Positions 30,291 through 49,927 of a stretch of 64,000 nt of DNA are shown here, piece by piece. The translations under genes and the position numbers were made by a program. The notes beneath the pieces are model-generated. The model did not search any database and had not been told where the DNA came from. It saw only the letters and a list, made by a program, of their open reading frames with translations. The stretch covers positions 297,166 through 361,165 of the forward strand of contig JAHPZJ010000013.1 in the NCBI GenBank assembly GCA_019058245.1, given 5' to 3'. Source of the stretch: Promethearchaeota archaeon (GTDB lineage: Archaea; Asgardarchaeota; Lokiarchaeia; Sigyniarchaeales; SOKP01). Each line of letters starts with the position of its first letter. Positions within the stretch are counted from its first letter, which is position 1.

Positions 30291-30378
30291 CTTTCAATTT
30301 GAAATTTTTTATAGAATTTTGTTGCAGAATGAAACTAGAAGGCAATAAACTGTTTAAAGCTTCCTAAATCCTTATAAG
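30291..30378 (+). promoter_or_regulatory. Putative Lrp-type operator array and TATA box upstream of the Lrp/AsnC gene
   Basis: CTTTCA-ATT-TGAAAT (30291), GTTGCA-GAA-TGAAAC (30321), GTTTAA half-site (30352), CTTATAAG (30371). Confidence 0.65.
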
Positions 30379-30420
30379 GAATCAATTTTTTTTTATATAA
30401 GCATTTCTAATAATATAATT

Positions 30421-30984
30421 ATGCCTTTAGATCAAATTGATAGACAAATTCTAAAATTATTATTTGAAAATGGTCGAGAAAGCTTAAGCTCATTGAGTTT
30501 AAACGTTTTAAAATCAAACAAAGAAACAATGAGTCATGCAGGTATTGCAAAAAGAATTTCAAAATTGGAGGATGAGCGTATACTTAAAATACAAGGTAAT
30601 ATTGGTATTAAGAATTTAAACTATTTTGCCGCATTTATCTTGATTGAAATGAAAAATTATGATGAACTACAAAATATAATTGAAGCTTATTCAGAATGTC
30701 CAAGAGTTTTTCTGCTGGCACAAGTTACAGGTCAATATAATTTGATATTAGGGATTATCGGGCAAAATGTGGATGTTTTACATCGATATATTAATTATTG
30801 TGGTCCTACAAATAAAAAAGGAATTTTACACTCTATGGTAATGTTCACATCCGAAATAATAGTACCTCAATTTCTTCCCCTTAATCTCTTTAGTGGTATA
30901 AGTAAGGAAGATAAATGTAGCAACATTTGTTGTGATTGTGCAGCATTTCTTGATAAAAAATGCAGTGGATGTGGTAACTTTTAA
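30421..30984 (+). CDS. Lrp/AsnC family transcriptional regulator with a C-terminal Cys-rich (metal/Fe-S) extension
   Basis: LDQIDRQILKLLFENGRES...RISKLEDERI HTH; VTGQYNL RAM motif; tail CSNICCDCAAFLDKKCSGC. Confidence 0.88.
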   Translation: MPLDQIDRQILKLLFENGRESLSSLSLNVLKSNKETMSHAGIAKRISKLEDERILKIQGNIGIKNLNYFAAFILIEMKNYDELQNIIEAYSECPRVFLLAQVTGQYNLILGIIGQNVDVLHRYINYCGPTNKKGILHSMVMFTSEIIVPQFLPLNLFSGISKEDKCSNICCDCAAFLDKKCSGCGNF

Positions 30985-31136
30985 AATTAGGACTATATCT
31001 TAGTTTATATAACATCAACTAAATATTTTGGGTAATTTCTTTCTAAAACCTCATATAGAATAATAAATAGGATTTTTGTATATAAGTTTGTACCATTTTT
31101 GGACAAATTAAATAGCAATAAAAGAATGAAAGCGTT

Positions 31137-31231
31137 GTTTCATATTGAAACTTTATTTTCTATATTGTTGAAATTTGAAACAAGACTTATTTCTGAGGTT
31201 TAAATTATCCAATTTAAGAAATGCTTATAAG
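31137..31231 (+). promoter_or_regulatory. Putative Lrp-type operator array and TATA box upstream of the HxxCH-protein/ccm operon
   Basis: Perfect GTTTCA-TAT-TGAAAC (31137), GTTGAA-ATT-TGAAAC (31167), GTTTAA half-site (31198), CTTATAAG (31224). Confidence 0.7.
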
Positions 31232-31295
31232 TAAGCTATTTCTTTTAAGTTTAAAGTAATCTTTTTAAAAAAAATAAATATCTTTAAATTTAAAA

Positions 31296-31970
31296 GTGAT
31301 TCTGAAAATGAACAAGAAAATTTTGAGATTGTTCATTATATTCTTCTTTGTTTTTGCAACTATAGGAACTGTTAGTGCTTGGCCTGGATATATGACAGAA
31401 TGGGACGAAACTGATCATGGATCATGTCATGCGGGAACCTATACTGAGTCTACAGGTACATTATCTGCAACAATTACTCCTGTAAATACCACAACTGTTA
31501 CACTCGATCCTGGAACTACCTTTAATGTTACCCTTGATATTACAGGATTTACTGCGGCAGCAAATATGCACGTTTTAGTTGGTATATCTGCTAAAATTAG
31601 TGATAATCATGATTTTTTTTTTGGTGTTCATAATGATACAGGAGAGCTTGGGGCAACTGCCTTTGAGATTGGATTAGACGCCTCTGGAAATGCTAATAAC
31701 ACAGTAACTATTATTACATTCGCTCCTACTACTGGTGGTTCTCATACATTAACAATTGTGGCTGTTGAAGGAGGAGAATCATTCTCTACTTATCACCCAT
31801 TTAATTACATTAAAACTGAAATAACAGTTACAGTTAAATCTACAAGTAGTGGTGGTATTCCAGGATACAGTATTTTCTTCATTATTTCAGCAGGGATTAT
31901 AACTACTGTACCAATAGTATTAATTATACTTCGTAAAAGAAAAAATCATAAAGGAGTTGAGTTCAATTGA
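31296..31970 (+). CDS. Secreted, C-terminally anchored putative haem protein with an H-x2-C-H motif (likely ATG at 31308)
   Basis: Signal peptide ...TVSA|WPG; DHGSCH holds the only Cys; beta-rich body; GGIPGYS-TM-RKRK sorting/anchor tail; first gene upstream of ccmC. Confidence 0.65.
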   Translation: MILKMNKKILRLFIIFFFVFATIGTVSAWPGYMTEWDETDHGSCHAGTYTESTGTLSATITPVNTTTVTLDPGTTFNVTLDITGFTAAANMHVLVGISAKISDNHDFFFGVHNDTGELGATAFEIGLDASGNANNTVTIITFAPTTGGSHTLTIVAVEGGESFSTYHPFNYIKTEITVTVKSTSSGGIPGYSIFFIISAGIITTVPIVLIILRKRKNHKGVEFN

Positions 31971-32644
31971 AGAAGAATAAAATGATTGTGTTAGCTGTAA
32001 TTACTACAATGATATTCGGTTTAGTAGGTTATGTAGTTGCTCATCCCACAGAAATTGTAAATTATACGGGAGCAACTCATGTTTCAACTGGTTGTCATGG
32101 TACAAATGGCGTTGCTTCTAGCGGAACTCTTCAAGTATCAGCCTCAACTTCTGGTAAGTTGATTACTCTTACTGCTACAATACAAGGATTTACAGATGCA
32201 ATTACGACAAATAATAGATCTGGGACATTTTCTATCGGAATTCCTTATGATCTTGGAGATAATAGGGAATTTGGACTAGGAATAGCGCAGAATACTGTTA
32301 ATGGCGAAACTAATTATTGGGGAATTGGTATATGGGACGTTGAGTTAGATTCAAATGGAAATACAGTTAATCCCTTGAAATTTAGAGTGCTAGCTCCTGA
32401 AGCTGAAGGATCATATAATTTAATTGTTGCTGTTATAAATGGAGCAAATACAGCGGGAGATGTACAAAGTATTATTTATATGCACAAAATAATATCTGTT
32501 ATAGTAACCGGTGGAAGTGTAACAATTGCTTCTCTAACTATGATCTTTCCTCTAAATAATATATTTCTTTATGCAACTTTCGGAATATTTGGTACTGGGA
32601 TGATGATTTTCGTGTTTAAGCGTAGAAAAATTAGAAAAAATTAA
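31967..32644 (+). CDS. Secreted, C-terminally anchored putative haem protein with an H-x4-C-H motif (paralog of the upstream gene)
   Basis: Signal ...YVVA|HPT; THVSTGCHG holds the only Cys; shares 'DN..F', 'LD.SGN/LDSNGN' and 'AP...GS..L.(I/V)' with the upstream gene; C-terminal TM plus KRRK. Confidence 0.65.
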   Translation: MKKNKMIVLAVITTMIFGLVGYVVAHPTEIVNYTGATHVSTGCHGTNGVASSGTLQVSASTSGKLITLTATIQGFTDAITTNNRSGTFSIGIPYDLGDNREFGLGIAQNTVNGETNYWGIGIWDVELDSNGNTVNPLKFRVLAPEAEGSYNLIVAVINGANTAGDVQSIIYMHKIISVIVTGGSVTIASLTMIFPLNNIFLYATFGIFGTGMMIFVFKRRKIRKN

Positions 32645-32717
32645 CTAAATCTAACTATAATAATTAATTTTTTTTTTATAAACCTTAAAATTTTAAATGA
32701 AAAAACAAATTTTTTAA

Positions 32718-33524
32718 ATGTCTGTTAAAAAAGTAAAGGAAAGATCTAATTCAAATTTAAAGAGTATAATGATACGAAATAAAAAAGATCAATTAGATCT
32801 ATTGAAAATCGTTAAACATCATTTATTATTAACAATTTCACTTATTATGTTAATTATTAGTTTATTATTAATTATAATTTTAACTTCAAATAATCTAATT
32901 ATTTGGGGTTCACCTAATCGAATTATCTATACTATTTTTTTTTATCATGTATCCGGAGCATGGCTTTCATATTTCTCTTTTGGAATTAGTTTGATTTTTC
33001 ATATTCTATATTTAAAGTCTCGTAAAAATATTTGGATTAACTTGGGTAAAAATAGTATACTAGTTGGAGTATGTTTTTCTGGATTTACTCTTATAACAGG
33101 TTCGCTTTGGTTTAATGCTACATCGGGAGATTATAATAATATTTTTTGGGTATGGGGTGATGCTCGACAGACTACTACATTAGTATTATTCCTTTCTTAT
33201 TTATCTTATCTTGTATTTGCTAAAATGATTGAAGACAGGGAAAAAAAGGCTAAATTAACAGCACTACTTGGTATCGTGCTATTTCCAACAGTTCCCTTAA
33301 GTTACATTTCTACAATAGTTTTTACAAGTTTACATCCTTTAATTAACCCAACTCCTGGTGAACCTGGAAATATTTACTGGGATCCTTTGAAACTATTTAT
33401 GTTATTTTTCAATTTAATTGCAATGACCATATTATTTATGTATATTATAAAAGAATTAACTTTTTTAGATAAAAAAAAAGATGAATTAGAGAAAATTAAA
33501 CAAATTCGTTTATTGAGAGATTAA
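32718..33524 (+). CDS. ccmC: Cytochrome c maturation haem-handling protein CcmC
   Basis: FFYHVSGAW, LITGSLW...FWVWGDARQTT (WWD domain), TSLHP; six TM helices. Confidence 0.88.
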   Translation: MSVKKVKERSNSNLKSIMIRNKKDQLDLLKIVKHHLLLTISLIMLIISLLLIIILTSNNLIIWGSPNRIIYTIFFYHVSGAWLSYFSFGISLIFHILYLKSRKNIWINLGKNSILVGVCFSGFTLITGSLWFNATSGDYNNIFWVWGDARQTTTLVLFLSYLSYLVFAKMIEDREKKAKLTALLGIVLFPTVPLSYISTIVFTSLHPLINPTPGEPGNIYWDPLKLFMLFFNLIAMTILFMYIIKELTFLDKKKDELEKIKQIRLLRD

Positions 33525-33530
33525 TTAAAG

Positions 33531-33677
33531 ATGTCAATAGAGTATCTGGACCAAGATTTACTAACAATAATTATAAGTTATTTGTTATTCTGGGCTATTT
33601 TAATCATCCTAATTTTATATCCAAAACTAAAGTTAAAAAAAGTTCTTAAAAGTATTAAAAGATTAGAAAATTCATAA
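33531..33677 (+). CDS. ccmD: CcmD-like small membrane protein (48 aa; not in the ORF track)
   Basis: Manual translation MSIEYLDQDLLTIIISYLLFWAILIILILYPKLKLKKVLKSIKRLENS*. Single TM with SY, then a basic tail; lies between ccmC and ccmE. Confidence 0.7.
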   Translation: MSIEYLDQDLLTIIISYLLFWAILIILILYPKLKLKKVLKSIKRLENS

Positions 33678-33691
33678 AACAGGTGTGAAAT

Positions 33692-34030
33692 GTGAAAAAA
33701 TCTAGAATTATAGCAATTATTGGAGTTGTTGTTTCGATTGGTGTTATAATAGCTTTATTATCTATAAATACACGTCCTTACCTCAAAGTATCTCAAGTTG
33801 TATCACATTCCACTCGTTATGATAATAAAGAAATTCAAATTATTGGTATTGTCGAAGGATATGTTTCCAGTGATTTTAATTTAACTGAGGGTGAGCATAG
33901 TATCTTTATTGATATTAATAACATTTCTCCTCCTAGTACGCTAAAAAATGGAATTGAAGTTGTTGTAATTGGAATTTTTAGTTCTAACCTAATTTTAGTA
34001 GCGGAACAGATTCTTACTCAATGTAGTTAG
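33692..34030 (+). CDS. ccmE: Haem chaperone CcmE, Cys-type, truncated after C-S
   Basis: N-terminal TM, 'YLKVSQV', 'PPSTLKNGIEVVVIG', 'AEQILTQCS*' corresponding to A..(V/I)L.K(H/C)xxxY. Confidence 0.8.
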   Translation: MKKSRIIAIIGVVVSIGVIIALLSINTRPYLKVSQVVSHSTRYDNKEIQIIGIVEGYVSSDFNLTEGEHSIFIDINNISPPSTLKNGIEVVVIGIFSSNLILVAEQILTQCS

Positions 34031-34035
34031 AAAAT

Positions 34036-34761
34036 TTAGTCATACAAAAGTACATGAGAAATTAAAGTTAAGATTGAAATCATAAGGATTATATGAGCAA
34101 ACAAAAATCCTATTTCATAAATTAGATCATGTACTAATACTCCTTGTAATAGTTTTATATTTAATGAAATTATTGGAGTTGTTATAGGAATAATTAGAGG
34201 GAAAAGTATAATTGGTAAGATAAAAGACTTGTTTTTAGCATACATTGATAAAGCGGACACCAGACTTCCGCTTATAGATAAATCAAAAGTAGGCAATATG
34301 ATTCCTAAAATGATGTAGGTTAATACTTGAATTGAACTTATTCTACCTATTAACGGTGCAGATAAAAAGAAACTAAAAAGGTACAAAATACTCTCGATTA
34401 AAGTCATTAAAATTAAACAATATATAGTTTTACTGTAAAGAATTATATTTGGATAGATTGGAGATGAAATTAGACCATTTATCGTACCCGATTCCTTTTC
34501 TTTGATGAATAATTTTGCCATAATATAGATAAGAGTAAAAAAGATAATTATCCAATTTTGAATCATAAAAATCTCTAAAGGCATATTTTGATATTGAGTT
34601 CCAAAATTATAAACTGATGAGAATATGAAAATTGAGATAATATCAAAAAGAATTACAGCAAATAAATCATTCACTTGCCGAACTTCAGATTTAATATCTT
34701 TTATAAGTATAGTTTTAAATTGCTTTAATTTTAATTTTAATGATATATTTTCTGTTTTCAA
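34036..34761 (-). CDS. ccmB: Haem ABC exporter permease CcmB
   Basis: KDIKSEVR, FIKEKESGTINGLISSP, ILPIILFPLIIP. Confidence 0.88.
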   Translation of the reverse strand: MKTENISLKLKLKQFKTILIKDIKSEVRQVNDLFAVILFDIISIFIFSSVYNFGTQYQNMPLEIFMIQNWIIIFFTLIYIMAKLFIKEKESGTINGLISSPIYPNIILYSKTIYCLILMTLIESILYLFSFFLSAPLIGRISSIQVLTYIILGIILPTFDLSISGSLVSALSMYAKNKSFILPIILFPLIIPITTPIISLNIKLLQGVLVHDLIYEIGFLFAHIILMISILTLISHVLLYD

Positions 34762-34773
34762 AAAAACACCTTT

Positions 34774-35493
34774 TTAAAATAGTGATTCAATTTCATCAAA
34801 TTCTTCATCTGTAATCCTTTTTTCAATTCTGCCTTTTTTTAAAATAATCAAATCATTACATAATTGTTGAAATAAGTCTGTCTTATGGGTCGTAAGAATT
34901 ACTGTAACATTTTTTTTTTGATTCATTTCTCTGATAAATTTAATTAGCCTATCTGTTGCTGCATAATCTAAACCAGAAAAGGGTTCATCTAAAAATAATA
35001 TTGAGGGTCTATGGATTATAGATCTTATCAATTCTACCTTTTGTTTCATTCCATGGGATAAAGTTCTTACAGGTTCATTAATCCAATCTGTAAGCTCAAA
35101 TCTTTCAACTAATTTGTTAATTTCCCGCATAATATCTCCTTTTTCAAAAATTAAATGTAAGTTACAATAGAATTTTAAATTCTCATAAACAGTTAATTCC
35201 TCATATAGAAAGGATTCATCAATAGTTATTCCAATATTCTGATAAATAATTCTTGAATTTTCTTTATAATTCATTCCCCCTATTTCAACATTTCCAAAAG
35301 TAGGTTTAATCAATCCTGATAGTATTTTAATAAGAGTTGTTTTACCCGCTCCATTCGCACCAGCTATCCCAAATATTGTACTTTTTTTAATAGTAAAAGA
35401 ATTATTTTTGAGGGCAAAAAAAAACCCATATTGTTTTGAAATGTTATTACAATTTATTAAATTATTATCGGATTCAACCATAATCTGAATCAT
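34774..35493 (-). CDS. ccmA: ABC ATPase CcmA
   Basis: GANGAGKTT, LSHGMKQK, LFLDEPFSGLD; directly upstream of ccmB. Confidence 0.85.
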   Translation of the reverse strand: MIQIMVESDNNLINCNNISKQYGFFFALKNNSFTIKKSTIFGIAGANGAGKTTLIKILSGLIKPTFGNVEIGGMNYKENSRIIYQNIGITIDESFLYEELTVYENLKFYCNLHLIFEKGDIMREINKLVERFELTDWINEPVRTLSHGMKQKVELIRSIIHRPSILFLDEPFSGLDYAATDRLIKFIREMNQKKNVTVILTTHKTDLFQQLCNDLIILKKGRIEKRITDEEFDEIESLF

Positions 35494-35668
35494 ATATATT
35501 ATGAAATTTAAAAATTATAATAATTTGAAGGAATTAAAAGTAAAAAAATAATTGTTATTTAATTTATATTATCGAATTTAATTTTCTTGTTATTAATTTG
35601 AATAGGATTGAAATTTCATTAGTTGTTATAATCTATAAACCATCTAAATAAAATTTGTGAATTGAAAC

Positions 35669-37360
35669 TCAATTTTTGTTGAAAAAGGTTGTTAATATTG
35701 AAGGAATTATCCCGCTCAATAGAAAAATAAAGCCTGTGATGTAAAAAATATCTTGAAAAATCCAAAAATTCTTACTTATTAAAAATCCGATCATAATAAA
35801 TGAGATTCCAGCATGAATTATTGTTTTAGAATTTAACTTGAAAAAATGTTTGATTCCTTTCTTAAATTTTAAATTTGTTATAATAGACCAAAAAGACACT
35901 ATTACCGCTATAAAAAATATTCCTATAGAGGGATTAATCCAAATATCAAGAAGCACTAATCCTATGACTGAAAATATTGATTGAATCGTAAAGACTATAA
36001 TTATCAAGCATATCATTAATTTTATCCCAATTTTTTCATAAGTAATACAAAAGATTAATGATAAAGACAAACAAATAGCTAATGTTAATGTAGTTATAAT
36101 AAAATAATCTGTCCCTATATAAATTATGTTTATGGGAAAGAATTCTGATAGTAATACCGTTAAAGGTGTAACAAAAAGCCCGAATATGCATACAAAAGAT
36201 AAGCTAAATAAAAATATGTAACTTAAGTAATTAAAGAGAAGCTTCAATTTTCTATAATCCTGTAATATATAATCAAGAATAATATATATTACGTAGAGAG
36301 AAAATATTATTAAAATTAATCCAGTTATAGTCAACCAAATAATTAATTCAGTTCCTCCAATATAAGAATGAAGTGGAGATATTCCTGCTCTTGTAACTAG
36401 TGTAGAAAAAATAATAGCAATAAAGATTAATCCAAGATTTACTTTCACTAAATTTTGATTTTTCTTTTGAAAAGTCATAGTATGAAAGTAAGCAGTAATG
36501 AAAAACCATGGGATAAGAGATACTGTTTCAACCTGATCCCAACCCCAATATCTTCCCCAGTTCAATGCAATCTTAGCCCAATATGCACCCAATCCAATAC
36601 CTAAAGTAAGAATCAACCATCCAAACTTTAAAGTAAATTTATAAAAATTTTGTTGAAACGATTCTAATAGAGTTGTGTCTTTTGTTAAAATTTCTGCAAT
36701 CACGACTGTAAATGGAATTAGAAAAATCGCATATGCAATAAATGTAAAAAATGGATGCCAAATCATAAATGGAGATATTAAAAGTGGATTCAAGCCTAAT
36801 CCATCAGAAGGAGACGATGATTGGAGTTCAAAAGGATTTAAATAAAATAATATTATCAAAAAAAGGGATGAAACTATCGATGATATTATAACAGATCGAA
36901 TGAATACGATATCTTTATTGTTATTATTTCCCATTCGAAATAGATTGATCATTATTGCATTAAATAACATCCATGTCATGATGGATCCTTCTTCACCAGC
37001 CCAAATAGCAACAATTTTATAAATTATAGGGAGTGAATTATTGCTAAAACTCCACACATATATAATTTTATAGATGTTATTTAGAAAGCTGTAAACCATA
37101 ATTAAAAATAAAATCACCGATAGGCTCATTGATAAAATTGATAAAAAATAAGCATTTTGTTTTTTAACAATTAATAGAATAAGATCCAAAATCATGATTA
37201 TTATTAAAAAAATGATTAAAAAGTTGCCTAGAAAGGATATAAAAACAATTCTATAACTTAATTCTATTAAATCTAATACTAAAGGAATTATTAATATAAA
37301 GATAAGAATTAAGCTGAAATTAATAATAACCAGCTTTTTTATCGATATATTAATAGACAT
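35669..37360 (-). CDS. ccmF: Cytochrome c synthetase CcmF (compact form)
   Basis: WAGEEGS, GLNPLL...WHP, GAYWA...WGRYWGWDQVETVSLIPW, TRAG...HS, C-terminal IIHAG. Confidence 0.92.
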   Translation of the reverse strand: MSINISIKKLVIINFSLILIFILIIPLVLDLIELSYRIVFISFLGNFLIIFLIIIMILDLILLIVKKQNAYFLSILSMSLSVILFLIMVYSFLNNIYKIIYVWSFSNNSLPIIYKIVAIWAGEEGSIMTWMLFNAIMINLFRMGNNNNKDIVFIRSVIISSIVSSLFLIILFYLNPFELQSSSPSDGLGLNPLLISPFMIWHPFFTFIAYAIFLIPFTVVIAEILTKDTTLLESFQQNFYKFTLKFGWLILTLGIGLGAYWAKIALNWGRYWGWDQVETVSLIPWFFITAYFHTMTFQKKNQNLVKVNLGLIFIAIIFSTLVTRAGISPLHSYIGGTELIIWLTITGLILIIFSLYVIYIILDYILQDYRKLKLLFNYLSYIFLFSLSFVCIFGLFVTPLTVLLSEFFPINIIYIGTDYFIITTLTLAICLSLSLIFCITYEKIGIKLMICLIIIVFTIQSIFSVIGLVLLDIWINPSIGIFFIAVIVSFWSIITNLKFKKGIKHFFKLNSKTIIHAGISFIMIGFLISKNFWIFQDIFYITGFIFLLSGIIPSILTTFFNKN

Positions 37361-37550
37361 TAAAAAAACACCTAGAATGTATTATTTAAGGGTTTTAATA
37401 AAGGTTTTTAAAAATAAAACTTGGGTATAATTTAGGTGCAATTTTTGCTATAAATCTTTAAAAAAATCTTTATTTTTAAATTATATAAACAAGATATAAA
37501 AAGCAATACTCATAGATTAAAAATATTTCAGCTTGAGTAAATGATAAATC

Positions 37551-38423
37551 ATGAATAAGAAAATTTTTTACTTTGGTACTTGCATTATTGTGTTGATGAC
37601 TTTCTCACTTTTTATCTTCGGAACCGCAAGGCCTCAATTTGGAGACACTCATTCTGAGAGTGGATGTCATGGATCATCGGGGGGTTATACAATTTCGTAT
37701 ACCACACCTGAAGAAAATCTTATAAATAATACTCCTTATTTTACTTTTAACATTTCTGCTAGTGGACCTGATTTATTTGTACAAGCTTATCCTGGTGCGA
37801 AAGATAATGACAATTTTAATATTATTCCTTCAAATAATAAAATAGTCGACGATTCGGAAAATGATTTAAATCCAAATCACGATGCAATGAATATCATTTT
37901 CAATGTAACACCAACTGTAGAACAAAAATCTTATACATTGTTCATACTTGCAGGTAATAATATAACTGGGGGTCGACAATTCGCTTATGTTGAGATTGTA
38001 ATTGGAATTCAGCCTGGATTTGATTTCTCTTCTGTAATACTCGATCATTTAGGTTTATATTTAGGATTACCAGCTTTGTTATTAGTTTCGATTGCAACTG
38101 TCCTAGTTTTAGTAAATGAAAATAAATTCGTAAAGGTTCATGGATTACTGGCTGGTGGTGCATGGATTTTAACAATCATTAATGTTATTGTTGCTGTAAT
38201 AAAAATACCTGCGAGAGCTTGGCTTGGGGGTTATAATTTAGTTTATCATCTTCCTCATATAATTCTTGGCTCGATTGGTTTGGTTACTGGTTTTTTAAGT
38301 ATATTGTTTGGAATTGCGGCAGAGAGGAGACCAGCAAAAATCACAGGATATATTACTGTACTCTGTTGGTGGGGTGCTTTCTTTTTAGGTTTTTTTCTAA
38401 ACTCCAATTTATTTTTAATTTGA
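37551..38423 (+). CDS. Secreted H-x4-C-H domain fused to a four-TM cytochrome b561-like domain
   Basis: Signal ...FGTA|RPQ; THSESGCHG; TM histidines in DHLGLYLG, FVKVHGLL and LPHIILG. Confidence 0.62.
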   Translation: MNKKIFYFGTCIIVLMTFSLFIFGTARPQFGDTHSESGCHGSSGGYTISYTTPEENLINNTPYFTFNISASGPDLFVQAYPGAKDNDNFNIIPSNNKIVDDSENDLNPNHDAMNIIFNVTPTVEQKSYTLFILAGNNITGGRQFAYVEIVIGIQPGFDFSSVILDHLGLYLGLPALLLVSIATVLVLVNENKFVKVHGLLAGGAWILTIINVIVAVIKIPARAWLGGYNLVYHLPHIILGSIGLVTGFLSILFGIAAERRPAKITGYITVLCWWGAFFLGFFLNSNLFLI

Positions 38424-38445
38424 TAATATTAAGTGATATCTCAAG

Positions 38446-41386: not shown

Positions 41387-41463
41387 ATAAATACGGAGTT
41401 AGAAATCTTTAAAATATTTTTCCTATTTTTATAACATTATTGAAAACTATAGATTAAGTAACA

Positions 41464-43602
41464 TTAATTTTTTAGAGAATCCGGAAAATCATCAGCATTT
41501 TCTAAATTATTCCAATTTAGGGATATTTCTTCTAGAGAAGGTATACTACTCAGATTTTTTGGTAATTTCGTAAGATGGTTATCATTTAGCTTTAACTTTT
41601 TAAGAGATTTTAAATTTATTAAAGAATTAGGTAATTTTTTTAATTTATTTCCAATTAACCAAATCTCTTTAAGAAAACTTAATAATCCTATCGATTCTGG
41701 TAAGAATTCAATATTGTTATCAATTAAATACAGCCTTTCCAGTGAATTAAATGAACCAATCGAATCAGGCAGATTTTTAATCTGATTACCTGTTAATTTT
41801 AGAACCTTTAACAGTTTAAGTTTGCCAAAATCTTCTGGTAAAACTACAAGTTTATTATATGATAAATCTAAAAGTTCTAAAGATCTAATCAAACAAATTG
41901 AACTTGATAATTTATGTAAATTGTTATTATTTAAATAGAAATATTTAAGAGATTTTAGGGTTCCCAGAGAATCTGGAATACTTTCTAATTTATTCCAACC
42001 TAATTTTAAAACTTCAAGAGAATTTAGTATCATTATTGATTCAGGGAGGAAGGAGAGATTATTATCTTCTAGGTTAAGAAATTTAAGTAATGACATTGAA
42101 TTCAATGAGTCTGGAAGTTTTTCTAAATTATTACTACTTAAATTAAGGTATTCGAGTGAATAGAGTAATCCAATAGAGCCAGGTAAATTTACTAATTTAT
42201 TTTGAATTAGATTTAGAGTTTGAAGAGATTTTAGCTTCCCTATAGAAGATGGGATTTCTAATAGTCTATTTCCACTAACATTCAAAAATTTTAATGACGA
42301 CAGATTTCCGATTGATTTTGGAAGATAAGTTAGACAGTTCATTTCTAAATTTAAATGAAGTAACGATGAAAGCTTACCTATTGAATCTGGGAGTTTCTCT
42401 ATTTTGTTTTTACTTAAATTTAAAAGTTTTAAAGATGTAAGTGATAAAATTGATTTATTAATATTTTTAAGATTATTTCCTTCTAGATCTAAAGCTTTTA
42501 AGTTTTTTAAGGAAGCAATTGATTTGTTAATTTTATAGAGATTGCATTTTTTTAATAGAAGTGATCTTAGTGAACGAAAATACTTTATATAACATGGAAA
42601 TTTAACAAGAGGTACTTTTTCAATATGAATTGAAATAAGTTCCCCCATTGATACTTTATAATTTATGATTGGATATTTTTTTCTTAAATATGAGATAGTC
42701 AAATAATTTCTAAATATATCTGATAATTTCGAGAGTGATAAATCTTCAAAAGTTCCTGAAAGGTGTTTAAATGATAATTTAAATTTTTTATCATCAATAC
42801 TCCTTATTTGATCTATTAATACCTCTCTCGCTGCTTCATTGTTTAATCTTTCTAATGCTATTGTCAGTGCGATTGAGTTTTTAAAATTGAACTCATCTTT
42901 AATTGACCATTCAGTTGAGAAGAATTTTATTTTTTTTAGTCGTTCTAGATTTTTAATACCAAGAATTTCAGAATGATCCTGAAAAGCATCTCTATCTCGC
43001 CAATAAATAGCTTGGTTATCAACTTCAGAAAAATCTAAATAAGTTATAAATCCCTTCTTTTCTAAAAATTTAAGTCTGTGAAATTTCTTTTTTAGATTTT
43101 TAATGGTGATTTGATTTATGAGTATATTTCCTAATTCATTACTTGAAAATGACGTAGAATTATTATTATTAAAGAAAAAATGCGTCTTATCCTCGAAAAT
43201 TTCAGAACTTATTCTATTCAGTTCATCGATTAATGCTTTTATGATTTTATCATCATTATAAGCTTTTAAAGCTTTAACTATTGTTATTAAACAGTTATAA
43301 GAAGATTCATGCTTTAGAGCCCAGAGAAATGGAGATATTGCTTTTTTGGGATATTTATCCTTTAAAACATTTGCTGCAAAATATCTCAAATCATCATTTA
43401 TTTCGGATATAAGTATATATTCTAAAACATTGAATACATTTTTTTGTTTTAAATCAATTTTATTTAAGATTTTAATACAATCTTTTTTAATGGTATCATC
43501 ATTTATGTTTTCGATGAAATCCAGTAATAATCTGACTGTTTCACCTTCATTAAATGCTTGACTTCTAAAATTTTCATAAATTCTATTTGGTGTTAACTCC
43601 AT
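41464..43602 (-). CDS. Leucine-rich repeat protein with an N-terminal HEAT-like region
   Basis: About 16 repeats of 23 aa (LPxSIGxLxxLxxLxLxxNxLxx) in the C-terminal half; HEAT-like 'NDDLRYFAANVL' at the N-terminus. Confidence 0.9.
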   Translation of the reverse strand: MELTPNRIYENFRSQAFNEGETVRLLLDFIENINDDTIKKDCIKILNKIDLKQKNVFNVLEYILISEINDDLRYFAANVLKDKYPKKAISPFLWALKHESSYNCLITIVKALKAYNDDKIIKALIDELNRISSEIFEDKTHFFFNNNNSTSFSSNELGNILINQITIKNLKKKFHRLKFLEKKGFITYLDFSEVDNQAIYWRDRDAFQDHSEILGIKNLERLKKIKFFSTEWSIKDEFNFKNSIALTIALERLNNEAAREVLIDQIRSIDDKKFKLSFKHLSGTFEDLSLSKLSDIFRNYLTISYLRKKYPIINYKVSMGELISIHIEKVPLVKFPCYIKYFRSLRSLLLKKCNLYKINKSIASLKNLKALDLEGNNLKNINKSILSLTSLKLLNLSKNKIEKLPDSIGKLSSLLHLNLEMNCLTYLPKSIGNLSSLKFLNVSGNRLLEIPSSIGKLKSLQTLNLIQNKLVNLPGSIGLLYSLEYLNLSSNNLEKLPDSLNSMSLLKFLNLEDNNLSFLPESIMILNSLEVLKLGWNKLESIPDSLGTLKSLKYFYLNNNNLHKLSSSICLIRSLELLDLSYNKLVVLPEDFGKLKLLKVLKLTGNQIKNLPDSIGSFNSLERLYLIDNNIEFLPESIGLLSFLKEIWLIGNKLKKLPNSLINLKSLKKLKLNDNHLTKLPKNLSSIPSLEEISLNWNNLENADDFPDSLKN

Positions 43603-43773
43603 ATTAAAACATATTCTTTTTCATGTTTTTTTAAGAATTTCCTAGCTACATTAAATTTAATAAATCCTTTACGAACAATAAAGAATTTTAAAAAAAAAAT
43701 TTTTAGAGCCTTGAATTTATAATTCAACTCTAAATTTTGAATAACAAAATCCTGAATAATCAATATAAAATAT

Positions 43774-43968
43774 TTAACGTATTTCGACATTTAATATATT
43801 TGAATAAAGAACTTTTCCTTTCTTATCAGTAATTGAAAAGTTTAAACGTGGTGTACAAGCTAACAGCAATTTAAAATATTGATCTATGTTCTCTTTACCA
43901 TTCAAATCTTGTTCAGGAATTGTTACTCTATCTTGAAACTCTATTTCACTTTGTATTGCTTCAACCAT
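43774..43968 (-). CDS. Small hypothetical protein (64 aa), possibly in the Lrp-box regulon
   Basis: ATG ORF with a TATA box (44038-44045) and an operator array upstream. Confidence 0.55.
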   Translation of the reverse strand: MVEAIQSEIEFQDRVTIPEQDLNGKENIDQYFKLLLACTPRLNFSITDKKGKVLYSNILNVEIR

Positions 43969-44037
43969 AATCTTATTTTCTCCAATTTTTCATTTTTTAT
44001 TAAATATTTTTACCTAAATATAGATTCTGAATATTAG

Positions 44038-44133
44038 TATATAAATATATCGGTTATAGATTAATTTAAACAACGCAGTGAGTTCTAGTTTCAATTTCTT
44101 ATAATATTTGCTAAAAAAGTTTCAAATTGAAAA
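44038..44133 (-). promoter_or_regulatory. Putative Lrp-type operator array and TATA box upstream of the 64-aa ORF
   Basis: Minus strand: TTTTCA-ATT-TGAAAC (44133-44119), ATAAGA-AAT-TGAAAC (44102-44088), GTTTAA-ATT (from 44071), TTTATATA (44045-44038). Confidence 0.6.
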
Positions 44134-44142
44134 TTTTTTTTC

Positions 44143-44217
44143 TCGATCATTTCTCTTTTCAGTCACAATAGCTAGAGAATATGATCGATCCCGATCAAAA
44201 GTAAAGTTTTTATGATC
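44143..44217. other. Pair of adjacent inverted repeats (possible RNA hairpins) downstream of the hdr operon
   Basis: TCGATCATTTCTCT...AGAGAA-T-ATGATCGA (44143-44188; 14 bp with one bulge) and GATCAAAA...TTTTTATGATC (44193-44217). Confidence 0.45.
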
Positions 44218-44300
44218 ATTTGTGAAAATTTTAAAAATAAGGTTTTTTATATTTTTATAAAAAATAAAGCTAAAAATTGATTTTAAAATTAGGTTTTGAT

Positions 44301-44972
44301 TTATTTTTTTATACGATCTAATAGGGAATCCCAAAAAAACGCTTTATAATCCCCTGAATAATGAATATCACTAATTTTTAAACTTATGACCTTTTTTGAA
44401 CATGCATTTACGCATGTTCCACAACTTATACATTTATCTTGATTGAATGATACTTTTTTATTTTTTGAATGAACGGATTCTAGATTTTTTTTAAGTTTAA
44501 AGAAAGCACCAGAAGGACACACTTCGGTACATGACATACATGAAATACATTTATCCCAATCTACATAGATTTTTCCATCAAAAAATACTTTTATTTCTTT
44601 TTGATTGCTATTGACTAAGTGATATTCTAAATCTGGTACAAATCTTTTTCTTATAATCCCCATTTCTTTAGTGGGTATTTTTTCTCCATTATACTTCAAT
44701 GATATTGCTGATAATGGGCAAATATAGGCACAAGTTCCACAAAAAGAGCATTTTAGGATATCTGGAGTATCTGGTATTAAATCTTCTGTTTTTATTCTTA
44801 TTTTACCTTCTAATCTTGGATGAGGGATTGCATTATTTGGACAAGCTTTAATACATAACCCACAACCAATACATTTTTCTTTATCTATTTTTATTGAATA
44901 ATCTTCTGTATAAAAACTAAAATTTATTTCATTAAATTCATAATTGTTAACTTTGTTAACTCTAGGATACAC
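44301..44972 (-). CDS. Polyferredoxin with four [4Fe-4S] motifs (FwdF/FwdG-like)
   Basis: CIGCGLCIKACP, CSFCGTCAYICP, CISCMSCTEVCP, CISCGTCVNACS. Confidence 0.88.
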   Translation of the reverse strand: MYPRVNKVNNYEFNEINFSFYTEDYSIKIDKEKCIGCGLCIKACPNNAIPHPRLEGKIRIKTEDLIPDTPDILKCSFCGTCAYICPLSAISLKYNGEKIPTKEMGIIRKRFVPDLEYHLVNSNQKEIKVFFDGKIYVDWDKCISCMSCTEVCPSGAFFKLKKNLESVHSKNKKVSFNQDKCISCGTCVNACSKKVISLKISDIHYSGDYKAFFWDSLLDRIKK

Positions 44973-45009
44973 TTTTCAATCATACTCTAAAATTGATTTT
45001 AAAAAGTTA

Positions 45010-45600
45010 TTATAAATCTACTGTTAATATCTTAGATTCTATATTTCGTTCTTTTAGTTGGTTATTTATTCCTTTAAACGTACTTTTTTTACCAAAATGT
45101 ATGAGATTCCAATCTTTAGATTCTAATCCTTTAGTGACGTTTATGATTTTTTTGACAGCTAAATCAATTCTTATTTTTTGGTTTATATAAGACTTTAATT
45201 CTTTAATTTCATTTGAATAATAATTTATCAAAAAACTAAGTTCCCGTGCAGCAGGACTATTCTTATCAGTTAAAACTTTTAAAGTAGATTTTATTTCATT
45301 ATTTTTATTTTTTAAGTCAATGATTTGATTAACCAAATGTCCTTTTACATAATAAGGTAATTCTATAGTAAAATAAGGAATTTCATATTCCTTTAAAACT
45401 TTTGATAAATATGTTTCATTAAATTCCCGTAGATTCATGTATCCTAAATCTACTGTTGCTAAGTCGACTGAATTTCTCTCTAAAAATTTAAATAAATCTT
45501 CAAAATTCTTAACTAATGTTTTTGAATTTATATTGTTTCTTAATTCCGTAAATTTTTTGTAATTTGCTAAAGTTTCAGAGATTAATGTTTTTATTTTCAA
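45010..45600 (-). CDS. Hypothetical protein within the hdr operon
   Basis: 196-aa ORF; TTG start preceded by an AGGAGGGG SD-like sequence; tight spacing to both neighbours. Confidence 0.65.
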   Translation of the reverse strand: MKIKTLISETLANYKKFTELRNNINSKTLVKNFEDLFKFLERNSVDLATVDLGYMNLREFNETYLSKVLKEYEIPYFTIELPYYVKGHLVNQIIDLKNKNNEIKSTLKVLTDKNSPAARELSFLINYYSNEIKELKSYINQKIRIDLAVKKIINVTKGLESKDWNLIHFGKKSTFKGINNQLKERNIESKILTVDL

Positions 45601-45610
45601 CCCCTCCTTT

Positions 45611-46084
45611 TTATATTATTTTTACTTTATTTTGTAAACTTTTTTCAATAAAATTTGGATTTTGATTTTTTATTGGACTAGGTCCTAATATTTTTAATTC
45701 TTCGACAAATTTGTTAACAATATTTGTTAATTTTGCTCCCTCAGAAGCAGATACAAAAATATATTTAATTCTTTTAGGGTTAATACCAAATTGCTTTAAA
45801 TAGGATAAGAACAGTGGTATTCTTCTAATTGTCTTAAGATTTCCGGATACATAATGGCAATCACCTGGATGGCAATGTGAAATTAAAATTCCATCAATAC
45901 CGTCTTTTAAGGCAGTGATTATAAATTCGGGAGTAATTCTACCACCACACATTACTCTTATGATTCTCAGGTTTGCAGCTCGCTGCATTCTGGAAGTCCC
46001 AGCCTGATCGGCTCCAGCATAAGAACACCAATGGCAGAAAATTCCTAAAATTGATGGATTAAAATTTGACACATTTGTTTCCAT
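45611..46084 (-). CDS. mvhD: Hydrogenase-Hdr [2Fe-2S] subunit MvhD (Cys form)
   Basis: FCHWCSYAGADQAG, RVMCGGR, HCHPGDCHY..GN, VSASEG. Confidence 0.93.
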   Translation of the reverse strand: METNVSNFNPSILGIFCHWCSYAGADQAGTSRMQRAANLRIIRVMCGGRITPEFIITALKDGIDGILISHCHPGDCHYVSGNLKTIRRIPLFLSYLKQFGINPKRIKYIFVSASEGAKLTNIVNKFVEELKILGPSPIKNQNPNFIEKSLQNKVKII

Positions 46085-46086
46085 TA

Positions 46087-48069
46087 TTATCCTCCTATTT
46101 TTTCCGATTTTTGAACTGCATTATGTATCATTGGTAATAATTGTGCATTACCAAATTGATTCTGGATAATTGCTGAAGTAGGGCATGCAGCAACACAAGT
46201 TCCACATCCTTTGCAAAGAATCTTATTAATTTCAGCAACTTTTTGAAGTTCATTAAAAGATATTGCATTGAAAGGACAAACACTAATGCAACTTTTACAA
46301 CCGGCACATCTATGATTTAATACTATTGAAAAAATTGGATCAATTTCCACTTTTCCTTTAGCAATTAATAATGCTGATTGCAATGCTGCAGCTTTTGCTT
46401 GAGCAATAGCATCAGGAATATCTTTAGGACCTTGAACTGCTCCTGCTATAAATATTCCATCTGTTAATGTTTCTACTGGACGTAATTTAGGATGAGCTTC
46501 CATTAAAAACCCATCCTCAGATCGCTGTACATTAAATAGCCTAGTTATTTTATTAGAATCTTGTCTTGGTTCCAATCCAACAGCTAAAACTAATAAATCG
46601 GCTTTAATTCTAATTAATTTTTGTAAAAGAGTATCTTCCCCACGAACTATGATGTTATGTTCTTCATCCTCTACTACTTCTGAAATTCTTCCTCTAATAA
46701 ATTTGATATGAAATTCCCTTCCGGTAGAGTCATAAAATTCTTCATATCCTTTTCCAAATGCCCTTATATCTATATAAAAAATAAAAATGTTTGCATTAGG
46801 ATGTTTTTCTTTAAAAAGTCTAGCTTGCTTCGCTGAATACATACAGCAGACTCTAGAACAATATTTATTTCCTTTTTCAGTAAAATCTCGACTACCTACG
46901 CATTGAAGAAATACTATCGTAGAGGGTTCTTTTAAGTCTGATCTTCTTTTCACTTTACCTTCTGTTGGACCAAATGAACTCATTAATCGTTCCATTTCTA
47001 ACCCAGTAATAACATTTGGATATTTTCCATAGCCATATTGCCTCAAGATTGTTGGATCATAAAGATCATATCCAGTGGATAAAATAATAGTTCCAACCTT
47101 AATATCTACAAATGTTGGTTTATCATCATATTTAACAGCATCAACAGGACAAATTTCAGCACAAATTCCACACTTGATACAATGGTCCATATCAATCGTA
47201 TATTTTCCAGGAACAGCTTGAGGAAAAGGAATATATGCTGCTTTTCTCTTTTTCATTCCTAAATCAAATTCGTTAGCAGCAATAACAATGCATTCCTGAG
47301 CACAAGTTCCACATCCGGTGCAAATTTCTTGATCTATATAATGAGGTTTTTTTTTAATAGTAACATTAAAATTCCCAACATAACCAGAGATATTTGTAAT
47401 TTCACTATAAGTCATTAATTCTATATTTTTAGCCTTCAAAACTTCAGACATTTTTGGAGTTATTACGCAAGAAGAACAATCTAATGTAGGGAAAGTTTTA
47501 TCAAGTTGAGCCATATGGCCACCAATAGTCGTTGTTTTTTCTACAAGATAGACTTTATATCCAAAATTGGAAAGATCTAAAGCAGAATTCATTCCTGCAA
47601 TTCCTGCACCAACAACTAAACAAGTTGGTTCAACTTGTACGCGAAATTTTTCCAGAGCTTCCAATTTATTAGCTTTTGCTACAGCCATTCTAACATGAGA
47701 TTTTGCGATTTCATATGCTCCTTCAGTATCTTGTGTATTTACCCAGGTACAATGTTCTCTTATATTTGCTGCTTCATATAAATATTGATTTAGACCGGCT
47801 TCATTACACACCTTTCTAAATGTTGTTTCATGCATTCGGGGTGAACATGCAGCTACTACAACCCTATTAATTTCACCATTTTTAATCTTTTCCTTTATTA
47901 ATTCTTGACCAATTTCAGAACACATAAATTTATAATTAAAAGCTTCAACTACATTTGGAAGAGTTTTTGCATATTCTGTTAACTTTTCGACATCGATAAC
48001 TCCAGCTATATTATTACCACAATGACAAACAAACACACCAATTTTTGTTTTATCCTTCAAGTTTCTCAC
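46087..48069 (-). CDS. hdrA: Heterodisulfide reductase subunit A (Cys form)
   Basis: GVFVCHCGNNI, AACSP, NIREHC, VGAGIAG, KTFPTLDCSSC, QCVGSRD, YCSRVCCMY, AGAVQGPKDIP, ferredoxin motifs. Confidence 0.95.
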   Translation of the reverse strand: MRNLKDKTKIGVFVCHCGNNIAGVIDVEKLTEYAKTLPNVVEAFNYKFMCSEIGQELIKEKIKNGEINRVVVAACSPRMHETTFRKVCNEAGLNQYLYEAANIREHCTWVNTQDTEGAYEIAKSHVRMAVAKANKLEALEKFRVQVEPTCLVVGAGIAGMNSALDLSNFGYKVYLVEKTTTIGGHMAQLDKTFPTLDCSSCVITPKMSEVLKAKNIELMTYSEITNISGYVGNFNVTIKKKPHYIDQEICTGCGTCAQECIVIAANEFDLGMKKRKAAYIPFPQAVPGKYTIDMDHCIKCGICAEICPVDAVKYDDKPTFVDIKVGTIILSTGYDLYDPTILRQYGYGKYPNVITGLEMERLMSSFGPTEGKVKRRSDLKEPSTIVFLQCVGSRDFTEKGNKYCSRVCCMYSAKQARLFKEKHPNANIFIFYIDIRAFGKGYEEFYDSTGREFHIKFIRGRISEVVEDEEHNIIVRGEDTLLQKLIRIKADLLVLAVGLEPRQDSNKITRLFNVQRSEDGFLMEAHPKLRPVETLTDGIFIAGAVQGPKDIPDAIAQAKAAALQSALLIAKGKVEIDPIFSIVLNHRCAGCKSCISVCPFNAISFNELQKVAEINKILCKGCGTCVAACPTSAIIQNQFGNAQLLPMIHNAVQKSEKIGG

Positions 48070-49006
48070 CTATTTTAGTTAAAAAAGGTTCTATTGAAAT
48101 AAACGGTGGAACGCCAGATAATTCTTTATCTTTAATTAGTCCAACTTCCTCAGGATTCATACCAAGGGCAAGTCCTAATAATTGCGTATAATATATTACA
48201 GGAATATTAAAAGGAGCGTCAATTCTATCTTTAAAAATCTTATTTATTTCTATCTGTCCTAAATCAAACTGAAGATGACAAAAAGGACATACAGTAATAA
48301 TAGCTTCAACGCCGGCGGCTCTCATATTTGTGAGTTTTTCTCTTGTAAAATCTAAAGAAATTTCTTTAAAAGCACTTCTTACTGCTCCTGCAGCACCGCA
48401 GCATCGATATTTATCTAGATAATTTATGCTTTTACACCCTGTTGCTTCAACTAAATCATCTAAAAAGTGTGGTGTTTCAGAATCCTTACCCCAAGGTCTT
48501 ATTTCAGATGGCTTTAAAAGATGACATCCATAATGTACTGCTATTCGAAGATCTAACTTATTTTTTCGCCCGTATTTTACACGATTTTTTATTTTATCTA
48601 ATCCAATATCTTTATATAAAATTTCTATTATATGTTTAACCTTAATACTTCCTTTATATGATCGATTTACTTTACTCAGATGATAATTTACCATATTACG
48701 CTTTTCTACATCGGATTTTAATTGATGATCGGCTTCAAGAAGGCTTCCATAGCATCCATTGCACATTGTAGCTATATCATAATTATTATTCTCTGCAATT
48801 GTCAAATTTCTAGTCGCAATTATTAACCATGTATCGATGTCAAAACCGCGAAAAACGCCTGGAGCTGGACAACAAGAGGCTCCCTCCATATCGACAAGGG
48901 TTATCCCTAATTTTTGAAATACTTTTTTAGTAGCAGCTTCGATAAAAGGATATCTGTTTGGTATTACACATCCAAGGAACAATGAATATTTTTTATCTTG
49001 TACCAT
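48050..49006 (-). CDS. hdrB: Heterodisulfide reductase subunit B, copy 2
   Basis: FLGCVIPNRYP, SCCPAPG, MCNGC, HYGCH, RCCGA, VCPFCHLQFD. Confidence 0.93.
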   Translation of the reverse strand: MVQDKKYSLFLGCVIPNRYPFIEAATKKVFQKLGITLVDMEGASCCPAPGVFRGFDIDTWLIIATRNLTIAENNNYDIATMCNGCYGSLLEADHQLKSDVEKRNMVNYHLSKVNRSYKGSIKVKHIIEILYKDIGLDKIKNRVKYGRKNKLDLRIAVHYGCHLLKPSEIRPWGKDSETPHFLDDLVEATGCKSINYLDKYRCCGAAGAVRSAFKEISLDFTREKLTNMRAAGVEAIITVCPFCHLQFDLGQIEINKIFKDRIDAPFNIPVIYYTQLLGLALGMNPEEVGLIKDKELSGVPPFISIEPFLTKIGEKLEG

Positions 49007-49065
49007 TTTTAGTTAAACCGTCAATTTTATTGGGATTTACTGAAAATTTATTTATTTTATACTTC

Positions 49066-49692
49066 TTATATTTTTGAGATCTTTAACTTTTCTTCTTCTG
49101 TAATATATTTCTCAAGTGTTTCCTCAACTATAGAGACTTTAACTTTCTTTTTGATTCCCAACTCCTCGGAATCAATATTGATTAGCTCATTAAATTTTGA
49201 GCTTATCAAAAGCCTTTTTACCTCATCTAAATCTTTTTCATGGGAATGGACAGTAGGAGGAACTTTCTTTAATCCATAGAATTCTCGTAATTCTTTCCAT
49301 TTTTTGTCATCGATTGGAACTCCATGTCCAGAAAAACAAAATTTTTTACATAAATCGAGGTGACTTTTTAACATGAAACCTTTTTGAACAGCCAAATTCC
49401 GTAAAAATATTATCATATCAGTGATAGGTAATTTACGAGGACAACGTTCAAGACAGGTATAACAAGTTGAACAGTACCAAATATCATTTTCTGAAAGGAT
49501 ATCTTCAATCCCTAACTGAACTTTCCTCATAATTGTCCTTACTTTCAAAGCTGTTCTTTCTCCTGAGGGGCAACCTCCGGAGCATGTTCCACATTGAATA
49601 CAAGCATCAACTTCAGAATAACCTGCTTCTTTTAAAGAATCTACTAATGTATTTGTACAATTAGTTATAATATCTGGTTCATAATCTAACAT
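49066..49692 (-). CDS. hdrC: Heterodisulfide reductase subunit C, copy 2
   Basis: CIQCGTCSGGCPSG, WYCSTCYTCLERCPR, GHGVP. Confidence 0.93.
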   Translation of the reverse strand: MLDYEPDIITNCTNTLVDSLKEAGYSEVDACIQCGTCSGGCPSGERTALKVRTIMRKVQLGIEDILSENDIWYCSTCYTCLERCPRKLPITDMIIFLRNLAVQKGFMLKSHLDLCKKFCFSGHGVPIDDKKWKELREFYGLKKVPPTVHSHEKDLDEVKRLLISSKFNELINIDSEELGIKKKVKVSIVEETLEKYITEEEKLKISKI

Positions 49693-49882
49693 TTTGTTTC
49701 TTTCCTTATCTATTCTCTATATAAAAGTCATTTTAACCGATTTAGTCTAAACTTTTTTTTAAAGAATGATTAAAACAGCTAAAAGGTTATTAAGCCTTAG
49801 GAGAATAAATGTGAATCTAATATATAAGTTTTCCCTTTACATTTAATAGAGTTAGAGAACCTCTACTATTTTCCATTAAAAG

Positions 49883-49927
49883 GTTTCAATTTGCAACAAT
49901 TACTTTCAAAAAATTTCAATTTTAAAA
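49883..49927 (-). promoter_or_regulatory. Putative Lrp-type operator pair in the divergent hdrC2/mvhG2 intergenic region
   Basis: Minus strand: TTTTAA-AAT-TGAAAT (49927-49913) and GTTGCA-AAT-TGAAAC (49897-49883), 30 bp apart. Confidence 0.6.

Follow-up and report, generated by a model that had tools for sequence, protein, structure and literature searches.

In this study, we examined a recurrent three-box element in a window of 64,000 nucleotides from a Promethearchaeota archaeon of the order Sigyniarchaeales (contig JAHPZJ010000013.1 of assembly GCA_019058245.1, positions 297,166 to 361,165, or G000:C13:297166-361165 in our genome set). The genome, G000, is 3.09 Mb long, has 29% G+C, and is 76% complete. 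By the window we mean this whole stretch; it carries four arrays of the element, and a fifth sits 240 kb upstream of it. All five are intergenic and oriented towards a start codon 130 to 235 bp off, and we conclude that they mark a small but genuine regulon of redox and cell-surface genes, whose regulators are most likely Lrp proteins with a cysteine-rich tail.

Array 1 (30291 to 30364, plus strand), the top match genome-wide, comprises box 1 at 30291-30305, box 2 at 30321-30335, and box 3 at 30352-30364, and lies upstream of lrpA (30421 to 30984, plus strand), which encodes a full-length Lrp/FFRP regulator of 187 amino acids (aa) whose C-terminal tail is rich in Cys. Array 2 (31137 to 31231, plus strand) has its boxes at 31137-31151, 31167-31181, and 31198-31210 and a TATA-like element, CTTATAAG, at 31224-31231; it precedes an operon (31308 to 34030, plus strand) encoding two exported H-x-CH proteins, a CcmC-like protein, and CcmE (Pfam Cytochrom_C_asm and CcmE). 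On the minus strand, array 3 (44038 to 44133) consists of box 1 at 44133-44119, box 2 at 44102-44088 (a spacing of 31 bp), box 3 at 44071-44059, and the TATA-like TTTATATA at 44045-44038. It faces a 64-aa open reading frame (ORF; 43968-43774), a 65-aa ORF, and the gene of a 712-aa LRR protein with Pfam LRR matches (41464 to 43968 together, minus strand), which probably form one operon; the 64-aa ORF had no Pfam or NCBIfam match, and its ESM Atlas scores were 0.84 or less. Array 4 (49820 to 49927, minus strand) has box 1 at 49927-49913, box 2 at 49897-49883, a degenerate box 3 at 49866-49854 (GTAGAGG, where relatives read GTTTAGG), and the TATA-like CTTATATAT at 49828-49820, and it precedes an operon (44301 to 49692, minus strand) assigned by Pfam as hdrC2-hdrB2-hdrA-mvhD, a 196-aa ORF, and a polyferredoxin gene. 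Array 5 (C13:57209) belongs to a minus-strand cassette at G000:C13:56792-57815 (locus L021:6789-7815), in which it lies between the stop codon of the paralogue lrpC and an 85-aa gene of the MarR family; the neighbours of this cassette are an NMT1-like gene and a pair made of a fused HdrA-like gene (1035 aa) and MvhD. The MarR-like gene extends the regulon by a fifth member outside the window, so that, as read from these sequences, the G000 regulon most likely comprises lrpA, the exported H-x-CH/ccm operon, the 64-aa ORF (probably with the LRR protein), the hdrC2B2A-mvhD operon, and the small MarR-like gene.

We took consensus and spacing figures from 70 distinct arrays of G000 and its relatives. 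Box 1 has the consensus gTTTCAaATTgAAAc (gTTTCA-aAT-TgAAAc by position, with A or T at the centre in nearly all arrays) and is followed by a T-run common to the aligned arrays; box 2 reads GT-N3-AaATTGAAAC, opening with GTTG in the aligned window arrays, and box 3 reads GTTTAaATTa-CC. The shared core is the right half-site TTGAAAC, iterated in direct register, and box 1 is the only good palindrome. The distance from box 1 to box 2 is 30 bp in 51 arrays and 31 bp in 19, and that from box 2 to box 3 is 31 bp in all 58 arrays with a scorable box 3; no fourth box is recognisable 31 bp after box 3. Box 1 satisfies the 13-bp form described for archaeal FFRP sites, abcdeWWWe'd'c'b'a' (PMC2715240), with TTTCA as abcde, and the spacing of three helical turns agrees with the published rule that neighbouring FFRP sites share one face of the helix at distances of two or three turns (PMC2995911). 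Among the 46 arrays with a match to the TATA-like motif (A/C)TTATA(T/A)A, 30 have it starting 26 to 27 bp after the start of box 3, as a candidate TATA box next to a putative TFB-recognition element (BRE). We also considered box 3 itself as the TATA box and ruled this out: orthologues read GTTGAGG or GTTTAGG there, and the element 26 bp downstream is always TATA-like.

A first-pass annotation of the window had listed eight boxes in four arrays, a GTTTAAA half-site 31 bp past box 2 at 30352, 31198, and 44071, and a TATA-like box exactly 26 bp further on in two arrays. All eight boxes and all three half-sites are where it had put them, and the 26-bp distance is true of arrays 2 and 3. Its picture of two boxes plus a half-site has the positions right, but each array really has three boxes.

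To judge the arrays against chance, we built position matrices from the boxes of other genomes only (orthologous lrpA promoters and promoters of the gene downstream) and scanned the whole of G000 on both strands. Pairs of box 1 and box 2 scoring at least 20 occurred five times at a distance of 30 bp and twice at 31 bp, compared with 7 pairs in total over 43 control spacings (about 0.16 each), a total that includes array 1 itself in a shifted register. The first-pass annotation had named paired boxes at background frequency as the outcome that would speak against the regulon; with seven pairs at 30-31 bp against about 0.16 per control spacing, this is not what we find. The five best matches in the genome are the four window arrays and C13:57209 (minus strand), and arrays 4 and 3 rank third and fourth although neither has an orthologue in the training set of the matrices. 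R1, a sequence-only covariance model that we used for array searches in G000 and its relatives, gave four matches in G000 at E ≤ 1e-10, the next being at 6e-4 and inside an ORF. Weaker matches at C3:2311, C28:165647, C28:32562, and C30:93836 lie within long ORFs and have no box 3, and we took them as chance. Single boxes, in turn, are near background: the window holds 16 matches with up to two mismatches, about half of them within arrays, compared with 6.2 expected, and the genome holds 216 box 1-like and 78 box 2-like sites. Specificity thus resides in the phased pair and not in the single box.

The first-pass annotation had also suggested phylogenetic footprinting, and in orthologous promoters of relatives the boxes and their spacing are indeed kept while the spacers have diverged; taken together, lrpA, the H-x-CH/ccm operon, the 64-aa ORF, and hdrC2 have the arrays before them in 8 to 10 species. 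R1 arrays occur in 23 of the 54 genomes of the genus, with 1 to 7 per genome in the same layout as in G000; the four arrays of genome G024, for instance, stand at C26 positions 124643 (+), 125491 (+), 138415 (-), and 144210 (-). In the lrpA promoters of eight genomes of the genus, whose LrpA proteins are 72 to 85% identical, the boxes begin at -130, -100, and -69 from the ATG, and no insertion or deletion separates the boxes of the orthologous promoters, the sole exception being G022, where the array is displaced by a 47-bp duplication. There (locus L009), box 2 and box 3 upstream of lrpA are tandemly duplicated as a 47-bp unit, yielding a four- or five-box array. Array 2 is conserved in G015, G024, G017, and G011, and orthologues of the first gene of its operon, 51 to 89% identical, follow arrays in five relatives (G024, G011, G007, G062, and G017). 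Array 3 is conserved in nine relatives; its 64-aa ORF is 55 to 92% identical in at least nine species with an array upstream every time, and in G007 the LRR orthologue follows it. Array 4 is conserved in seven relatives, and hdrC2 orthologues, 71 to 95% identical, lie behind arrays in seven genomes. When the promoters of arrays 3 and 4 are aligned, the conserved blocks are box 1, box 2, box 3, and the TATA-like element. Between arrays and species whose proteins are 55 to 80% identical, boxes and box spacing stay constant and spacers differ. The first ORF behind the relatives' arrays is, in seven to nine species, the orthologue of lrpA, of the 224-aa exported protein, of the 64-aa ORF, or of hdrC2; elsewhere it is the MarR-like gene. 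Some relatives have extra arrays before very large Big_7 immunoglobulin (Ig)-domain surface proteins within the ccm island (L060:2124-4985 in G007; L055:8537-13030 in G011), of which G000 has no array-driven counterpart.

The product of lrpA is, as judged from sequence matches and a structure model, a full-length Lrp/FFRP protein with an AsnC-type helix-turn-helix (HTH) and a RAM domain. HTH_AsnC (PF13404) narrowly passes its cut-off of 27 bits with a score of 27.4, over residues 3-29 only, and PF01037 (RAM/AsnC_trans_reg) reaches 17.8 bits, below its cut-off of 25. We nevertheless count the RAM domain as present, because the alignment to the best match among solved structures, FL11/PH1519 (E = 1.8e-8), covers residues 1-142, and because the AlphaFold2 model has the RAM β-α-β-β-α-β fold (strands 69-77, 96-102, 107-114, and 135-143, helices 80-90 and 117-127; pLDDT 70-87). 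In NCBIfam, the protein matches the regulators LysM, AsnC, and Lrp best. Relative to PH1519, LrpA has six extra residues in its HTH loop and ends in a Cys-rich tail of 45 residues. Among 25 sequences of the family, seven cysteines are invariant (C93, C127, C166, C170, C173, C181, and C184), with a terminal motif C-x3-C-x2-C-x7-C-x2-C; all 24 stand-alone paralogues are exactly 187 aa long, and the residues TMSHxG..R of the recognition loop are invariant, which fits one shared type of box. Some genomes also encode a 365- to 380-aa fusion of GAF, Lrp, and Cys tail, 41% identical to LrpA (L011:946-2049 in G023, and relatives), which lies amid clusters of Lrp-like genes. We dropped the idea that the C-x3-C-x2-C tail is the remnant of a radical-SAM fusion, as a 367-aa relative consists of GAF, Lrp, and the same tail. 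The clustering of related Lrp-like genes elsewhere had likewise suggested an AhbA/B-type enzyme; we consider this less probable, since no Nird/Ahb Pfam family (the siroheme decarboxylase families) matched LrpA at E ≤ 10, a family-level search that included no direct comparison with AhbA/B sequences, and the best matches are regulators.

The arrays and this protein family go together. Calling a Cys-tailed Lrp present at E < 1e-75, we found arrays in 23 of the 26 genomes of the genus that have one and in none of the 28 without; in a survey of 151 genomes of the order, 46 had both, 2 had arrays only, 7 had the Lrp only, and 96 had neither. Arrays are confined to one family, with 47 of its 131 genomes carrying them, and none was found in the 19 genomes searched from three other families of the order. 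One of the two genomes with arrays only, G114, encodes a Cys-tailed relative (44% identical) that shares a contig with the array and lies 7 kb from it, and the other, G112, has only a 31% relative; two of the genomes with the Lrp only, G050 and G067, have arrays slightly below the R1 threshold. Within the genus, 35 of 76 arrays lie less than 500 bp from a Cys-tailed lrp gene (14 at most 150 bp upstream of an lrp gene, and 14 at most 150 bp downstream of one), and 63 are on the same contig within 30 kb. On this sequence evidence we think it quite probable that the binder belongs to the Cys-tailed Lrp family, and we consider it likely that the arrays serve as operators or upstream-activating sites for its 187-aa members LrpA and LrpC, together with LrpB in relatives. 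LrpC is 62% identical to LrpA; the recognition loops of the paralogues are near-identical, and two or three of these Lrps may use the boxes in common, so that a single "local Lrp" cannot be picked out. Each part of the first-pass proposal that the local Lrp protein autoregulates and co-controls the odd cytochromes and the Hdr operon finds support in the genome comparison, with an array in autoregulatory position at lrpA in eight species and arrays kept before both target operons in relatives; what falls away is the choice of one Lrp, which sequence does not separate from its paralogues.

Several observations weigh against assigning the arrays to Cys-tailed Lrp proteins. The co-occurrence is partly trivial, because many arrays adjoin lrp genes on one accessory island, and the counts are drawn from related genomes, which are not independent samples. 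Genomes that have only the GAF-fused relative, with the same recognition loop, show no arrays. The 6-residue insertion of LrpA falls in the loop that makes most base contacts in FL11, so its specificity is unreadable from known rules; the tail residues 148-187 have pLDDT below 50, and the AlphaFold2 model is uninformative on metal binding. The TATA-like elements were assigned from sequence alone, and the lrpA promoter offers two candidates. Finally, 24 of the 54 genomes of the genus have a gene for the 85-aa MarR-like winged-helix protein, which tracks the arrays nearly as well as Lrp does and lies directly behind the most widespread array in a classic autoregulation layout. This protein could itself bind the arrays and autoregulate, the lrp genes being its targets and not the regulator; the lrp-array-marR cassette is kept in at least eight genera, and palindromes with half-sites 9 bp apart suit winged-helix dimers as well. 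We regard this alternative as unlikely, since no MarR-like homologue was found at E ≤ 1e-3 in five array-bearing genomes that are 84 to 100% complete (G048, G022, G060, G112, and G114), all of which encode a Cys-tailed Lrp relative. Moreover, the 85-aa protein lacks the dimerisation helices of MarR proteins, and three sites 30-31 bp apart with graded half-site quality are a signature of Lrp oligomers and not of MarR.

The linkage counts also bear on a somewhat less likely alternative, that the arrays are genuine but read by an unlinked or other factor, their association with lrp reflecting shared carriage on one accessory island. With 63 of 76 arrays on an lrp contig in related, nonindependent genomes, linkage alone could yield the co-occurrence. 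Minimal systems nevertheless exist in G043, G055, G057, and G063 and in several other genera, in which one lrp gene, one array, and a MarR-like gene stand together far from any redox island; the stretch from 30 kb to 51 kb of the window codes for no further DNA-binding protein, and the architecture of the sites conforms to Lrp rules. That the arrays are no operators at all, and instead chance AT-rich look-alikes, remnants of duplicated promoters, terminators, or origin-like repeats, is very improbable and already largely refuted. A palindrome followed by a conserved T-run does resemble a terminator, arrays 2 and 5 each follow closely on an lrp gene, and look-alikes are to be reckoned with at 29% G+C. 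Yet arrays 1, 3, and 4 have no co-directional upstream gene to terminate, the arrays mostly keep a fixed distance from the TATA-like box and the start codon, boxes persist while spacers differ between arrays and species, and the spacing-control and shuffle statistics rule out chance. The arrays are very probably functional operators, with Cys-tailed Lrp proteins as their most likely readers.

Further features were seen around these promoters. The two TATA-like candidates of lrpA (30371 to 30397, plus strand) are CTTATAAG at 30371-30378, which begins 19 bp after box 3, and a T-run followed by TATA at 30388-30397; both are conserved in the alignment of orthologues. Immediately 5' of the lrpA ATG, GTTTCTAATAATATAATT (30400-30420, plus strand) is nearly invariant in eight species, which exceeds the conservation expected of a short leader; its role may be that of a second operator or of a translation signal. 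The gap of about 800 bp upstream of lrpA is otherwise noncoding apart from a 5' stub of lrpB, a divergent paralogue, with about 24 codons (29960 to 30031, minus strand; 90% identity by tblastn to residues 5-24 of G024 LrpB). The DNA from 29960 to 30420 is 85% identical to the intergenic region of G024, and relatives have an intact 187-aa lrpB at the same position, the gene being deleted in G000. Directly upstream of box 1 of array 4, the block TTATAAATAA (49930-49945, plus strand) has columns conserved in eight species and is a candidate TATA box of the divergent hydrogenase small-subunit-like gene (50026-51444); because box 1 abuts this conserved block on the other strand, array 4 may also act on the hydrogenase gene. 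In the leader of hdrC2 (about 49717-49779, minus strand), within the stretch of about 130 nucleotides from the TATA-like box to the hdrC2 start, an 11-bp stem formed by CTGTTTTAATC and GATTAAAACAG is kept in seven species with wobble and one covarying pair (GC:3, AU:3, GU:1). This stem could be a leader RNA element; an Rfam scan of window positions 28000-52000 gave nothing at E ≤ 0.1.

We propose the following mode of action. The three 15-bp sites of each array would face the same side of the helix at intervals of three turns. Box 1 is a near-perfect TTTCA-WWW-TGAAA palindrome, box 2 retains the right half, and box 3 retains the left half, which would give graded affinity. Because this affinity would fall from full palindrome to half-sites, cooperative filling towards the promoter is suggested: dimers could load from box 1 to box 3, or a preformed oligomer could wrap about 75 bp upstream of the TATA box. 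From the end of box 3 to the TATA-like box there are about 13 bp, and the expected BRE would lie only a few bp away; this would be activator geometry, FFRP activators being known to bind a few bp upstream of the BRE (PMC2995911). By analogy with Ptr2, LysM, and Ss-LrpB, an occupied box 3 may aid recruitment of TBP and TFB and so activate transcription, and the regulator would also control its own gene. In what is the most speculative step, the seven invariant cysteines probably serve to sense the input signal; these, together with the redox nature of the targets, suggest a metal, Fe-S, or redox input. Both activation as the direction of regulation and the nature of the signal are what we infer from sequence.

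In an evolutionary perspective, the lrp-array-marR cassette, found in at least eight genera of the family and often the sole array of a genome, is probably the ancestral unit, and the arrays of the redox island seem to have spread later, along with lrpA and lrpB, in the genus and one sister genus. The accessory island holds Ccm machinery with noncanonical H-x-CH haem proteins, Ig-domain surface proteins, and an Hdr/Mvh module. It is conceivable, and we put it forward tentatively, that a lineage-specific Cys-tailed Lrp of one Promethearchaeota family, possibly a metal, Fe-S, or redox sensor, spread its three-box operator from a two-tier cassette onto this island and thereby created a redox-responsive regulon for extracellular electron transfer. 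Asgard archaea are the closest prokaryotic relatives of eukaryotes, and few of them are culturable; to our knowledge, almost nothing is known of their gene regulation, and the literature that we searched held no account of an Asgard Lrp regulon or operator. If this tentative reading is true, no transcription factor-operator code would have been defined in Asgard archaea before this one, in which cis code, candidate regulator, targets, and phylogenetic range are all legible from sequence and the reagents come down to a 187-aa protein and 75-bp operators. The regulon joins the unusual Ccm/haem-protein cluster, surface proteins, and the electron-bifurcating Hdr/Mvh module, which argues for one physiological unit switched on by a common signal and helps in interpreting the "odd cytochrome" genes of the window. 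Known ligands of the Lrp family are mostly amino acids, and a Cys-tailed Lrp would extend them towards metal or redox sensing.

The nearest known operators are those of Ss-LrpB and Ptr2, and the Asgard arrays are a variation of the known Lrp/FFRP operator type. Ss-LrpB from Saccharolobus (Sulfolobus) solfataricus has three regularly spaced, 15-bp semi-palindromic, A/T-centred boxes upstream of its own gene, redox-enzyme targets (porDAB), and an activating site just upstream of the BRE (PMC1802622, PMC2995911); array 1 is likewise a triple box in the regulator's own control region, kept in eight species. Cooperative binding of Ss-LrpB dimers wraps about 100 bp (PMC1802622). The box sequences differ, TTGCAAAATTTGCAA for Ss-LrpB compared with GTTTCAAATTGAAAC in the Asgard arrays, whose half-sites TTTCA/TGAAA do not match the Ss-LrpB box, which makes for an analogous architecture in another specificity class. 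Further, the Asgard boxes show a systematic asymmetry, box 1 being a full palindrome and boxes 2 and 3 keeping only the right and the left half, respectively, LrpA has the 45-aa Cys-rich tail and the 6-aa insertion in the recognition loop, and the host is an Asgard archaeon. Ptr2 from Methanocaldococcus jannaschii is an Lrp-type activator that acts via TBP recruitment; its regularly spaced palindromic sites precede the TATA boxes of the electron-transfer genes fdxA, rb2, and rbr (PMC2995911). It differs in having two sites instead of three and the consensus GGACGA-WWW-TCGTCC (PMC2715240), in lacking a Cys tail, and in the different control of its own gene. FL11 (PH1519) from Pyrococcus horikoshii, the best structure match, was cocrystallised with a site, TGAAA-WWW-TTTCA, made of the same pentamers (PMC2715240). 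FL11 senses lysine, mainly represses, and has neither Cys tail nor loop insertion, and the order of its half-sites is reversed, abcde being TTTCA in the Asgard boxes and TGAAA in the FL11 site; because the same pair of pentamers stands in the opposite order, the specificity of the Asgard boxes differs from that of FL11.

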